This document shows positions 23,388-30,363 of a stretch of 38,822 nt of DNA, in pieces. How positions within the stretch are numbered: position 1 is the first letter of the stretch; every line of letters starts with the position of its first letter. The position numbers and the translations under genes are program-made. Under the pieces are notes generated by a model. That model was given only the letters and a program-made list of their open reading frames with translations, was not told where the DNA came from and searched no databases. Origin of the DNA: Betaproteobacteria bacterium (lineage in GTDB: Bacteria > Pseudomonadota > Gammaproteobacteria > Burkholderiales > Casimicrobiaceae); the NCBI GenBank assembly GCA_027307095.1, contig DAHUXO010000146.1:1-38822 (forward strand). Reading direction: 5' to 3'.

Positions 23388-24497
23388 ATGTCGGATCTCG
23401 CCACCGCCGCACGGTTGCGGCAATCATCGTCGCAGTTTCCCGCCTCGTGGTATTGCGATCCCCGCGTGCTCGATGCCGAGCGCAGGCACCTGCTCGCGCA
23501 CGGCCCCGGCTATGTCGGCCACCAGCTGATGGTGCCCGAGGTCGGCGACTACCAGGTGCTCGCGGCGCGCGACAACGCGCAGGCGCTCGTGCACGGCCCG
23601 CAAGGCATCGAGCTGCTGTCGAACATCTGCCGCCACCGTCAGGCGATCATGCTGACCGGCAAGGGCAATGCCCGGAGCATCGTGTGCCCGATCCATCGCT
23701 GGACCTACGACTTGGGCGGCCAGCTGCTGGGTGCGCCGCATTTCGAGCCCCAGCCCTGCGTCAGGCTCGGCCGCTCGCCGCTGTCCAACTGGAAAGGCCT
23801 GCTGTTCGACGGCGTGCGCGACGTCGCGCGCGATCTCGCCGGCCTCACGCTGAAGGACCTCGATTTCTCGGGCCATGTGCTGAATCACGTCGACCTGCAC
23901 CAGTGCAACTACAACTGGAAGACGTTCATCGAGGTCTACCTCGAGGACTATCACGTCGAGCCGTTCCATCCCGGGCTCGGCCATTTCGTCACCTGCAACG
24001 ACCTGCGCTGGGAGTTCGCCGAGTGGGCTTCGGTCCAGTTCGTCGGCATCAACGGCGGTCTCGCGAAGCCCGGCACGCCGGCGTACAGGCGCTGGCACAA
24101 GGCGGTGCTCGACTACTATCGCGGCGAGCAGCCGCCGTACGGCGCGGTCTGGCTCACCTATTACCCGAACATCATGGTCGAGTGGTACCCCCACGTCCTG
24201 GTGATCAGCACGCTGATCCCGCAGGCGGTGGACCGGACCCTCAACGTCGTGGAGTTCTACTATCCGGAGGACATCGGGCTGTTCGAGCCCGAGTTCGTGG
24301 CGGCCGAGCAGGCGGCGTATCAGGAGACCGCAAGGGAAGACGATGAGATCGCTGAGCGGATGGACGCCGGCCGCAAGGCGCTGTACGCGCAAGGGCGCAG
24401 CGAGATCGGGCCGTACCAGTCGCCGATGGAGGATGGCATGCAGCATTTCCACGAGTTCTACCGCCGCGAGATGGAATCCCGTCTCGTCGACCTCTGA
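23388..24497 (+). CDS. Rieske non-heme iron oxygenase alpha subunit (possible putrescine 2-hydroxylase)
   Basis: Rieske ligands CRHRQ...CPIHRWTY, mononuclear iron motif NWKTFIEVYLEDYHVEPFHPG and the distal EDD. SD AAAGGA before ATG 23388. The specific substrate is inference. Confidence 0.92.
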   Translation: MSDLATAARLRQSSSQFPASWYCDPRVLDAERRHLLAHGPGYVGHQLMVPEVGDYQVLAARDNAQALVHGPQGIELLSNICRHRQAIMLTGKGNARSIVCPIHRWTYDLGGQLLGAPHFEPQPCVRLGRSPLSNWKGLLFDGVRDVARDLAGLTLKDLDFSGHVLNHVDLHQCNYNWKTFIEVYLEDYHVEPFHPGLGHFVTCNDLRWEFAEWASVQFVGINGGLAKPGTPAYRRWHKAVLDYYRGEQPPYGAVWLTYYPNIMVEWYPHVLVISTLIPQAVDRTLNVVEFYYPEDIGLFEPEFVAAEQAAYQETAREDDEIAERMDAGRKALYAQGRSEIGPYQSPMEDGMQHFHEFYRREMESRLVDL

Positions 24498-27497: not shown

Positions 27498-27728
27498 TGA
27501 CTGCTCCCATCGATGCCGTGCCGGCGACACGGCGCCGGCGGATTGGTCAGTGACGTCCGCAGCCTGCGGACGCCCTTCGCGCGATCGACGCAGGACCTTG
27601 CCTGCACGTTTCGCAACAGGGACCGGCGAGGATCGCCCGACCGGCCTGCGGGCATGGATGGGTCACCCCTTGCCCTTCGCACGCTCGCCGCGGCGTGATC
27701 CTTCCGCGGCTCGACGTGACATGGCTTC

Positions 27729-27757
27729 AAGTTAGCAGAGCCTCGCCGGCCTCACAA
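27729..27757 (-). promoter_or_regulatory. Putative sigma70 promoter of aceA
   Basis: TTGTGA (27752-27757), 17 nt, TAACTT (27729-27734) with an extended TG, at the edge of an AT-rich island. Confidence 0.55.
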
Positions 27758-27796
27758 GGGGTTTTACTGCATTGCACTATGAATTTTTTCACAATA

Positions 27797-27809
27797 AATC
27801 AATAGATTA
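27797..27809 (+). promoter_or_regulatory. Putative IHF binding site upstream of aceA
   Basis: AATCAATAGATTA matches WATCAANNNNTTR exactly and is preceded by an A/T tract. Confidence 0.55.
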
Positions 27810-28039
27810 GAAACTGTTCCCACGATGCGGAAATAAAATGGTCATGTGGTCGACAAATTGCTGCTGCAATGCGCCTCACCGTCCGCGCAATGCACGCAGC
27901 CGGCTCGGATACCTTATGCAAGCCAATGAATTTAAATAAATCATGACAGTCGCGGCACCCGTGGCGACGGGCAGGCGTATCAAGAAAAATCGGAAATGAA
28001 TTCCATGCTCGCCGGGAGGCCCGGCGCGCCGCCCGACGA

Positions 28040-29218
28040 TCAGCCTCTCGCGGCCCGATGCCGCAAAGCCAGCATCGCTTCGATCAACTGCGGATCATCC
28101 CAGGGAACGTCGACGGGATGCCTGCGCAGCCACTGGCTCGCCGGATCGCGCAGCCATTCGCCGGGAAAGACGACGAAGGTCCGCTCCTGGCCCGGCTCCG
28201 GAGCGCTGCGCCCTGGCGGCGGCACTCCCCGCGCCGCCGCACGCAGCGCCGCGCACAGATCCACGCCGAGCACCGCGCCGTAATGGGCCGCCGGGCCGAT
28301 CCTCCGGCTGATCTCGACCAGATAGGGGTTCCCGGCCGCGTCGTCGATCACATACTCGCAGGTGAAGATTCCGCTGATCCCGAATGCCGCAGCCAGAAGC
28401 CGCGCGCATTCGCCCAGATCCGGGGCATCGCGAAAACGAAGGACGGTCGCGGGCGCCGTCGCATCCGCGCGTCCCGGCTGCAGACAATCGCCGGCGTATC
28501 CGGCGAGCATGCGACCCTGCCAGGCCACGACGTTCTGGTACCAGATCCTGCCCTCGATGACCTTCTGGACCATGACGCGGCGCGCGACGTCCGGTTCGAG
28601 GTCGCCGGGGTCGGGGGCGGAGAGCGCCGCGATGGCGGAAACGAGGGACCCGTGGTTCGAGACGATCCGCGTCCCGTCCCCCGCGCCCGAATGCGCGCGC
28701 TTGACGGCCAGCGGATAGCCATGCGATGCGGCGAACCGTTCCGCATCGTCGAGCGTGGCTGCGACGACGTACGGGGGAACCCGCACGCCGGCGCGTTCCG
28801 CTGCCGCCGGGACCCGCGTCCTGTCCGCGCTTTCGCGGTAGTGCGCCGGGTCGCCGAGCGACCCGCGAACCAGATCCGCGAGCTCCGCCCGCAGCTCCGG
28901 CCGCAGCTCGGACGGCGGCGAGACCACGAGCATCGACAGCAGGCGAAACGACATCTCGTCGCAAGGGATCACGTGTGCCGGCGCCACCGCCTTGACGATC
29001 CCCGCGAACGCATGGACCCACTGCAGGGATGTCACCGACTCCGGCAGGTAGGCGATCCGCGAAAGATGGCGGGTGTGCTCGGCCAGCGCATTGCGCGGCG
29101 TGAGCAGGGTGACCTCGAATCCGACCTTGGCGAACGCGCGCGGAGCGCGTGCCGGGGCGTACCAGCTTGCGGCGGTCGAGACCAGCAGGATCGAGTCGTC
29201 GTTGGCCATTGCAGTCAT
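28040..29218 (-). CDS. ATP-grasp domain protein, paralogue 1 (uncharacterised carboxylate-amine ligase-like)
   Basis: IPCDE, GVRVPP, GYPLAVK, VQKVIEG, CEY and VEISRR; C-terminal FPGEWLRDPASQWLRRHPVDVPWDDP. ATG overlaps the paralogue 2 stop (ATGA). Confidence 0.85.
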   Translation of the reverse strand: MTAMANDDSILLVSTAASWYAPARAPRAFAKVGFEVTLLTPRNALAEHTRHLSRIAYLPESVTSLQWVHAFAGIVKAVAPAHVIPCDEMSFRLLSMLVVSPPSELRPELRAELADLVRGSLGDPAHYRESADRTRVPAAAERAGVRVPPYVVAATLDDAERFAASHGYPLAVKRAHSGAGDGTRIVSNHGSLVSAIAALSAPDPGDLEPDVARRVMVQKVIEGRIWYQNVVAWQGRMLAGYAGDCLQPGRADATAPATVLRFRDAPDLGECARLLAAAFGISGIFTCEYVIDDAAGNPYLVEISRRIGPAAHYGAVLGVDLCAALRAAARGVPPPGRSAPEPGQERTFVVFPGEWLRDPASQWLRRHPVDVPWDDPQLIEAMLALRHRAARG

Positions 29219-30363
29219 TCGTTGCGCAAGGCGACCAATGCCTCGAAGAGCGGGGGGTCGTCCCACGGGACATCGCAGGGATGATCGCGCAGCCAGCTGC
29301 TGTCGGGGTCGCGCAGCCACTCCCGCGGAAAGGTGGCGATGATGCCGTCGCCCGCCAGCGACATATCCTGTGGCGATGCATTCGGAACGCCAGCGAGTCG
29401 CGCATACAGCGCGCCGCACATGTCGACCCCGGCGAATTCGTCGAGATGCGTCATCGTCTCCAGGCGCCGGTTGATTTCCAGCAGCAGGGGCGGTCCTCCC
29501 GCCGCAGGGGCGATGAACTCGACCGAGAGGAAGCCGCTGATCCCGAATCCCCGGCACAGCCGCTCGGTGGACTCGCGAATGGAGGCGTTGCGCCGCAGCC
29601 GCACCACGGCGGTCGCCCCCTTGCCCTGCGCGAACGCGACCTCCCGCTCACGCGCAAAGCCGGCGAGGCACGTACCTTCCCAGGCGACCATCGTCTGCGA
29701 GCAGGTGCGACCGTCGATGAACGACTGGACGAGCAGCCGAGGCTGGACCGGCATTCCCAGGTCGATCTGCATCGGTTGCAACAACCCCCGCGCCGCGTCC
29801 GCGAGCTCGTCGGGGTGACGGACGACAGCAACACCCTGGCTCGCAAATCCGAACCGTCGCTTCACGATCACCGGGAAACCGAGGCGCTCCGCATGTGCCG
29901 CGGCCTCCGCGACGCTTTGGGCGACCGCGAAGGGGGGGACCGGAACGCCGAGCGCCAGGGCAGCCGCGGGAAGCGCGGACTTGTCGACGCTGGTGTCGTA
30001 ATGCGCGGGGTCGCCGAGGGACCGCTGCACCAGCTCGCGGAGCGCCGATCCGGCGCTGCCGCGGAAGGCCGGCGGGGGACTGCGCACAAACTCGAACAGC
30101 AGCCGCAGCGCCACCTCGTCGCAGGGTATGAGCAGTCCCGGTGCGACCTCGCGTACCGCCCCGGCGACCGCGAGCAGCCATTGCATCGGCGTCGCGCCAT
30201 CGTGCATCGCGACGCTTCGAGCGATGAATCGCGACTTGAACGCCATCGCGCCCCGCGGCGCGAGCAGCGACACAACGAACCCGGCCTTCGCAAGCGACCG
30301 CGGCATGCGCGCGGTCCCATACCAGCGCGTGGCCGTCGCCACCATCAGCGCGTTGCGATTCAT
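29215..30363 (-). CDS. ATP-grasp domain protein, paralogue 2 (uncharacterised carboxylate-amine ligase-like)
   Basis: IPCDE, VDK, GVPVPP, GFPVIVK, VQSFIDG, VEF and LEINRR; C-terminal FPREWLRDPDSSWLRDHPCDVPWDDP. Start chosen by alignment with paralogue 1 (alternatives 30396, 30405). Confidence 0.85.
   Translation of the reverse strand: MNRNALMVATATRWYGTARMPRSLAKAGFVVSLLAPRGAMAFKSRFIARSVAMHDGATPMQWLLAVAGAVREVAPGLLIPCDEVALRLLFEFVRSPPPAFRGSAGSALRELVQRSLGDPAHYDTSVDKSALPAAALALGVPVPPFAVAQSVAEAAAHAERLGFPVIVKRRFGFASQGVAVVRHPDELADAARGLLQPMQIDLGMPVQPRLLVQSFIDGRTCSQTMVAWEGTCLAGFAREREVAFAQGKGATAVVRLRRNASIRESTERLCRGFGISGFLSVEFIAPAAGGPPLLLEINRRLETMTHLDEFAGVDMCGALYARLAGVPNASPQDMSLAGDGIIATFPREWLRDPDSSWLRDHPCDVPWDDPPLFEALVALRNE

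Follow-up and report, generated by a model that had tools for sequence, protein, structure and literature searches.

Tandem ATP-grasp genes of a Casimicrobiaceae bacterium belong to an unnamed family that is often paired with genes for TctC-type binding proteins

ATP-grasp enzymes work through acyl-phosphate chemistry, and the L-amino acid ligases (BL00235, BacD and RizA) and PylC are stand-alone amide synthetases of this class, each of about 400 amino acids. Orphan TctC/Bug binding proteins are described as forming some of the largest lineage-specific expansions seen in bacteria, for the most part with neither ligand nor purpose known (PMC5812351, PMC5994714), and orphan TctC genes lying beside enzymes for imported carboxylates have been described as well (PMC5812351). 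Here, we describe two adjacent ATP-grasp genes, A and B, from a 38,822-nucleotide stretch of DNA (contig DAHUXO010000146.1, the window) of a Casimicrobiaceae genome (GCA_027307095.1, referred to below as G000; 95.7% complete, 368 contigs). Both belong to a family whose usual unit appears to be one ATP-grasp gene together with one dedicated TctC/Bug gene. In the window, the TctC gene is absent and the two ATP-grasp genes lie side by side. The features of the pair are as follows.

30363-29215, minus strand: gene A, ATP-grasp protein P0001, 382 amino acids, intact open reading frame
29218-28040, minus strand: gene B, ATP-grasp protein P0002, 392 amino acids counted from the first ATG, intact open reading frame
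29218-29215, minus strand: ATGA overlap of the A stop and the B start
30519-30514, minus strand: TAGAAT hexamer, likely -10 element upstream of A
29331-29224, minus strand: residues 345-380 of A, the Trp/Pro/Asp tail through which dimerization is predicted
28168-28061, minus strand: residues 351-386 of B, the Trp/Pro/Asp tail through which dimerization is predicted
28822-28820, minus strand: codon 133 of gene B, encoding Arg where 55/55 A orthologues and 117/118 other copies have Lys
28309-28307, minus strand: codon 304 of gene B, encoding Ser where 55/55 A orthologues and 112/118 other copies have Asn
27498-28039, no strand: intergenic stretch between B and aceA, where a TctC gene sits in relatives (G008, L063, L069, L128)

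An earlier reading of the window from its letters alone (the sequence-only reading) had described A and B as tandem, collinear paralogues coupled by the ATGA overlap and flanked by clpA upstream and aceA downstream, and this description was borne out: by BLASTP, 160 of 381 residues were identical (42%, one gap, E 4e-88) along a collinear alignment, and all of the shared motifs that had been quoted were present in both translations. Gene B has a second ATG at 29209. The proposed -10 element was found in place and recurred upstream of A at 12 of 13 orthologous loci, as compared with a genome-wide rate of 0.051 per kb, and therefore occurs there more often than by chance. A consensus promoter and terminator scan called no sites, with neither a full promoter nor a -35 element.

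Matches of A and B to ATP-grasp models in Pfam were weak, with PF02786 above its cut-off in both. Comparison with NCBIfam covered CarB, biotin carboxylase, PurK, PurT, Ddl/Van, RimK/LysX and cyanophycin synthetase, and among the matches listed no curated cut-off (143 to more than 1000 bits) was reached by A (best 40.1 bits) or B (best 44.9 bits); the PRK12767 models, which resemble carbamoyl-phosphate synthetase (CPS), were also unreached (40.1 bits against a cut-off of 316, and 33.1 bits against 218). AlphaFold (AF2) models of both proteins were confident (pLDDT 95.2 for B and 91.6 for A), and their top matches by structure comparison were all ATP-grasp enzymes of the three-domain fold (Z 22-25), whereby PurK, 2pn1, PurT, L-amino acid ligases and CarB matched about equally well at 10-22% identity. 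Because no NCBIfam cut-off was reached and the solved structures were at most 22% identical, the family is regarded as unnamed, in agreement with the earlier proposal of an uncharacterized ATP-grasp family; high identity to a characterized family was not seen in these comparisons. Searching the ESM Atlas via the homologue P0140 returned unnamed ATP-grasp clusters only. A literature search on the ATP-grasp/TctC pairing, the family and its Casimicrobiaceae host, made over titles and abstract openings and with the main ATP-grasp survey outside its range, returned no relevant paper.

At E 1e-40, family matches were found in 58 of 201 genomes of the bacterial family, with up to at least nine copies per genome. 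To survey the neighbourhoods, 100 genome regions around matches were fetched, better assemblies being preferred, together with 78 metagenome loci, and genes were called using our own codon model with a minimum length of 60 amino acids; six of the fetched regions contained no called family gene. A TctC/Bug gene directly adjoined 58 of 102 family genes in the genome regions (30/99 upstream and 28/100 downstream), against a background of 10 in 598 positions three to six genes away, and 31 of 92 family genes on the short metagenome loci, where both neighbours were visible for 55; related loci are not independent in these counts. Five genomes carried 16, 17, 10, 57 and 103 TctC genes, and chance adjacency would therefore amount to a few percent. 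Gaps between the two genes were short, often a 4-nucleotide overlap, and the linkage persisted through changes of gene order. The adjacent TctCs mostly formed a clade of their own, separate from the majority of the other G000 TctCs (exceptions at L131, L165, L115 and L171). ATP-grasp and TctC trees mirrored each other (67 pairs, r 0.875), and when partners were shuffled within genomes (26 cassettes, nine genomes), the observed value of 0.897 was reached in none of 5000 shuffles, the maximum being 0.871. For a reverse test, a profile built from 37 partner TctCs was run on the same 201 genomes, giving 77 partner-type hits in 41 genomes. The ATP-grasp family was present in 37 of these 41, compared with 58 of 201 overall, and 66 of the 77 hits, or 24 of 31 when counted only in genomes outside the profile set, lay within 600 nucleotides of a listed family gene. 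Two apparent ATP-grasp-TctC fusions, at L109 and L207, were rejected as frameshift artefacts.

The TctC partners scored far above the cut-off of PF03401, and their closest solved structure was Bug27 (E 2e-67). A hydrophobic leader was detected in 71 of 75 partners by a simple hydropathy rule, whereas in the models A and B begin directly at the first strand of the fold, so that binding protein and enzyme would reside in different compartments. Partners of upstream-type cassettes mostly carry twin-arginine-like leaders (L031, L043, L177, L185, L188, L201, L224, L232, L236, L238). Using the carboxylate-pincer motif as defined in part of PMC5812351, the pincer Asp was kept in 74 of 83 sequences, and the full motif in 5 of 75 partners as opposed to 11 of 18 other TctCs; the loop was non-canonical in 70 of 75 partners and varied by lineage. 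As the ligand loops differ in this way, each cassette lineage probably has its own substrate. No TctA or TctB gene was found among the annotated neighbours of family genes, and none of the three tctA genes in G000 lies on a contig carrying a family gene. A conserved third gene beside the cassettes was not found either, an O-methyltransferase being coupled in one sub-lineage only. At L029:1-8521 and L036:2829-9503, two cassettes lie about 5 kb apart around a TonB-dependent receptor gene and an Omp85-family gene, with an O-methyltransferase coupled upstream of one ATP-grasp gene and, in L036, a sulfotransferase following. Integrase/transposase genes and a LanC-like gene lie near the cassette at L043:14229-18036 (G011).

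Eleven partner-type TctC hits had no listed family neighbour. Ten were inspected: one lay beside a family-gene fragment, two were ordinary TctCs, and seven followed an AMP-binding enzyme, in six cases also with a carrier-protein-like gene or domain (DSL motif) and a Ser-Asp-His protein. The TctCs of these seven loci cluster in a single sub-clade (0.998) within the ATP-grasp partners, in which an adenylating enzyme has taken the place of the ATP-grasp. The loci are listed below.

L263:1204-4986: AMP-binding module
L265:4060-7852: AMP-binding module, carrier and hydrolase-like parts fused
L266:1335-5004: AMP-binding module
L267:1110-4933: AMP-binding module
L268:1300-5006: AMP-binding module
L270:3981-7617: AMP-binding module
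L269:2425-4959: variant with only the AMP-binding gene

The module thus comprises an AMP-binding enzyme, a carrier-like gene, an invariant Ser-Asp-His protein of about 300 residues with no Pfam hit, and TctC. This four-gene arrangement, which looks undescribed, was not found in G000. A TctC lineage shared by two unrelated, ATP-dependent systems for activating acids supports the view that the cassette serves to activate and transfer acyl groups. At L273:3010-10442 (contig C350 of G000), a TctC related to the partner clade is followed by an ATP-grasp gene of another type (PRK12767-like, under the cut-off at 127 bits) and, downstream of it, genes for a GT2 glycosyltransferase, a methyltransferase, a SEC-C/TPR protein and an RgpF-like protein.

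Gene A encodes the full family ATP/Mg site (K128, K168, E283, E296, N298 and R300). In B, K173, E288, E302 and R306 are kept, and Arg133 and Ser304 depart from the family (K133R and N304S). The sequence-only reading had correctly pointed to Arg at the usual Pro position of E-x-N-P-R in both proteins, and this Arg proved invariant (55/55 A orthologues, 78/78 B orthologues and 118/118 other copies; the distant relatives described below have Pro in 36/53); the two departures in B had been missed. All five ATP/Mg residues were complete in 55/55 A orthologues, 42/78 B orthologues and 110/118 other copies, at a similar mean identity within the A and B sets (73 and 70%). Losses in the remaining 36 B orthologues involved many different substitutions on separate branches, some of them non-conservative. 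Judging from Arg133 and Ser304, the B protein of the window has likely lost activity. Arg occupies the Lys133 position of CPS in the alignment as well, and Ser occurs at the Asn position of E-x-N in PurT.

Among B orthologues with known context, the ATP site was intact in 9/9 followed by a TctC gene and in 2/9 without one. Across the family, leaving the A clade aside, it was intact in 77/79 TctC-adjacent and 31/49 TctC-less copies, counts that include the L207 artefact. With L207 left out and copies grouped into tree blocks, the site was degenerate in 2 of 31 TctC-adjacent and 9 of 23 TctC-less blocks (Fisher p 0.005; p 0.006 when the A clade is counted as one further TctC-less block, intact in this case). 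Tail residues were the same with or without TctC (76/78 and 46/47), and within B orthologues the tail core was 99.8% conserved compared with 83.6% for the ATP site. Ratios of nonsynonymous to synonymous substitution rates (dN/dS), calculated by simple NG86 on GC-rich DNA, were 0.26-0.32 for B and 0.11-0.21 for A in TctC-less lineages, and 0.12 for B and 0.09 for A in a TctC-bearing pair. On these ratios, B is under purifying selection and not a dead gene.

In a quick tree (49/161 rows), A grouped with copies having TctC upstream (13 rows, SH-aLRT 99) and B with a group having TctC downstream. A recent tandem duplication was rejected, the tree holding A and B together being 58.8 log-likelihood units lower (approximately unbiased test, p 0.0007; 26 rows). 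A and B are thus placed by the trees in two old subfamilies. Relatives carry a variable set of genes between clpA and aceA (TctC then one family gene, two family genes then TctC, two family genes, or a single one), and the pair therefore likely represents two old cassettes that became juxtaposed and lost their TctC genes. A TctC gene lies downstream of the B orthologues of a sister lineage; in the window, no TctC remnant was found between B and aceA (best match E 0.02, on the wrong strand). In many relatives, the stretch from clpA to the pair also holds flavocytochrome c sulfide dehydrogenase genes (L033:11522-13166, L057, L059, L128); they are absent from the window.

Complex prediction for A with B, run on our own alignments, gave an ipSAE of 0.85 (0.84, 0.85 and 0.85), against 0.00 for the best of three controls; the mark used was reached by 116 of 157 solved pairs and 2 of 215 mismatched pairs. 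The runs shared at least 97% of contacts, with a partner pLDDT of at least 87. The predicted interface is formed by the Trp/Pro/Asp tails, tail to tail, and all 19 B interface columns are shared with A. A heterodimer through the tail is thus predicted, and the model supports binding, although likeness to solved dimers may contribute to the score because PurK-type structures align into the tail region. Position 366 is acidic in singletons and in A and mostly basic or Gln in B, and is a possible hetero-specific contact.

Starting from what was observed, namely the fold class, the adjacency and co-duplication, the TctC signal peptides, the residue patterns and the selection on B, we tentatively favour, at somewhat less than even confidence, an import-then-ligate cassette family. 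The TctC protein would capture a specific organic acid in the periplasm, import would proceed via TctA/B encoded elsewhere in the genome, and the cytoplasmic enzyme would activate the acid with ATP to an acyl-phosphate and then form an amide with an amine, as general ATP-grasp chemistry suggests. In the window, A would do the chemistry, and B would be a catalytically relaxed partner that dimerizes with A in the cell through the tail. Several points weigh against this proposal. Sequence cannot separate import from recapture of a product, and physical linkage alone yields mirror trees, so that only the persistence of the linkage argues for function. Given the non-canonical pincer loop, the ligand may be something other than a simple carboxylate and, with no conserved third gene, neither an amine donor nor a pathway can be seen. 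None of the 17 TctCs found in the 95.7% complete G000 assembly belongs to the lineage of A or to that of B. The A orthologues have no directly adjacent TctC and nevertheless keep an intact ATP site in 55 of 55; together with the 31 of 49 other intact TctC-less copies, TctC adjacency is therefore not required. Arg133 and Ser304 are conservative changes, and B may be active. Finally, singletons conserve the tail just as well (98.6%), which together with the symmetric interface makes the tail probably the general dimer surface of the family, and the predicted A-B contact may be that of a family homodimer.

Much of the same evidence could be accommodated if the small amide made by the enzyme (a signal, a metal chelator or a private nutrient) left the cell and were bound by the cognate TctC for re-uptake or sensing, cassettes then diversifying as synthase-receptor pairs. 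The strict one-to-one co-diversification, the lineage-specific ligand loops and the lack of conserved catabolic genes nearby would fit such a scheme, as would the biosynthetic type of the replacement module with its carrier protein and the capacity of TctC proteins to signal besides transporting, described in parts of PMC5812351 and PMC5994714. The AMP-binding version does not discriminate between a TctC that binds the precursor and one that binds the product. No exporter, sensor kinase or regulator recurred among the annotated neighbours, however, and decay of the ATP site after TctC loss is more simply read as lost substrate supply, so that we regard make-and-recapture as rather unlikely. 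Its boldest form, in which each paralogue makes its own amide that is read or retrieved by a co-evolved TctC, as signalling or private goods of an undescribed kind, while the tails let paralogues mix and B is kept as a pseudo-enzyme regulator of A, appears distinctly unlikely. One-to-one co-evolution and decay on TctC loss would also be accounted for if the binding protein were acylated by its own enzyme prior to export, RimK being an example of a known ATP-grasp enzyme that modifies proteins; as the invariant columns of the partners are mostly Gly, Pro and Ala, with no invariant Lys, and as A is intact with no adjacent TctC, this is highly improbable.

Other explanations concern the part played by B. 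A and B might form independent homodimers, B being an orphaned copy that slowly decays after TctC loss and has no role towards A. Their origin in separate subfamilies, the conservation of the tail in singletons and the long branch of B (0.34 compared with 0.13 for its sister in the quick tree) agree with this, and the complex test accepts close cousins of true partners as well. Set against it, B is full-length with a dN/dS of about 0.3 across deep TctC-less lineages, a B-type gene follows all 14 A orthologues in the tree, and the spacing to the first conserved motif of B is 21-41 nucleotides in the TctC-less loci measured as opposed to 147 in the TctC-bearing lineage (one lineage); we consider independent homodimers unlikely. 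The sequence-only reading had instead proposed a two-subunit or two-step ligase in which A and B are both catalytic. Conserved gene order and coupling, the predicted dimer, the conservative nature of the B substitutions and the presence of two family domains in one chain in the distant members P0250 and P0263 are in its favour. Nevertheless, 36 of 78 B orthologues are without at least one of the five ATP-site residues, with non-conservative changes among them, and the neighbours of most family members do not include a further ATP-grasp gene. The relaxed ATP site of B therefore makes two equal catalytic subunits doubtful, and an obligate pair of this kind is very unlikely. What stands of the two-subunit idea is a pairing conserved within the lineage (14/14) and a heterodimer predicted via the tail; as the defining unit of the family the pair does not hold up. 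Nor does the description as a stand-alone module, most copies being singletons whose conserved partner, the TctC binding protein, cannot be seen in the window. Singletons dominate, as had been named as a sign against a paired system, yet they are paired with TctC.

At least five family copies were found in G000: A, B, one on contig C251, one split between C251 and C140 (with a 118-nucleotide overlap of the contig ends), and pieces on C161 and C203. Close homologues carrying names were from Casimicrobiaceae, and 342 genomes from other families of the order gave no matches at 1e-35 (five candidates scored in each). Distant members formed 942 clusters at E 1e-30, occurring in Alphaproteobacteria and one other Burkholderiales family, and a phylum-wide sample had one in 3 of 400 genomes. 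Those examined mostly lay in polysaccharide clusters or beside a gene for a flavin adenine dinucleotide (FAD) oxidoreductase (Pyr_redox_3; e.g. L050, L051, L052, L256, L258, L259 and L045). Fusions among them were to a flippase (P0375) and, in two cases including P0327, to TPR regions.

The pair had also been described as the only non-housekeeping genes of the window, which was overstated: a ring-hydroxylating Rieske oxygenase gene (23466-24494) and a peptide ABC transporter are present as well. The stretch at 27720-27960, upstream of aceA, is AT-rich and is likely the aceA regulatory region.

Since one entire lineage of TctC proteins goes one-to-one with an unnamed family of ligases, ligand discovery becomes directly testable, as the TctC ligand should coincide with the substrate or product of the enzyme across dozens of natural variants. 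The family further offers a candidate ATP-grasp dimerization tail, a natural series of ATP sites relaxing after loss of a partner gene, and a source of new amide-forming biocatalysts.

In comparison with known systems, the three-domain ATP-grasp fold is shared with enzymes of the PurK, PurT, CarB and biotin carboxylase types (3k5h, 3q2o, 1eyz, 1a9x) and with 2pn1, a CarB-like orphan of the PRK12767 group. The B model matched PurK 3k5h with Z 25.3 (root mean square deviation (rmsd) 3.6, 330 aligned residues), 2pn1 with Z 24.7 (rmsd 3.0, 290 aligned) and PurT with Z 23.8 (rmsd 3.8, 327 aligned), and the A model matched 2pn1 with Z 24.2 (rmsd 3.5, 292 aligned). The E-x-N-x-R, Lys and Gln positions of CPS align with the family. 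Unlike the PurK, PurT and CarB types, the family has an Arg-Arg motif and its own Trp/Pro/Asp tail, is multi-copy and TctC-linked, and is only 10-22% identical to them. The L-amino acid ligases 3vot and 3vmm matched the A and B models with Z 22-24, tied with PurK and PurT (for B, 3vot Z 23.8, rmsd 3.7, 328 aligned; 3vmm Z 23.2; PylC Z 22.2), and the ligase 30vh was the only sequence match to reach into the N-terminal domain among those listed; these enzymes and PylC differ in their 10-16% identity and in having no known TctC link. Graspetide synthetases of the MdnB/MdnC type (7m4s) were a much weaker structural match to B (Z 14.3). The tail and the ATP site are shared by the distant polysaccharide-cluster relatives, which differ in having Pro or Ala at position 305 and in their neighbours (glycosyltransferases, Wzz/Wzy, flippase, FAD oxidoreductase and TPR fusions, not TctC). 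A complete tctCBA operon of a tripartite tricarboxylate transporter differs in that neither tctA nor tctB was found among the annotated neighbours here. With orphan TctC/Bug systems (arylmalonate decarboxylase clusters, AdpC and Bug27), the cassettes share a TctC that bears a signal peptide and for which the annotated neighbours include no membrane partner; they differ in a dedicated TctC lineage that is co-duplicated one-to-one with a ligase, in up to several cassettes per genome at unrelated sites, and in the non-canonical pincer loop. An orphan binding protein with a cognate enzyme is thus known in kind, and what is new here is a real, uncharacterized pairing.

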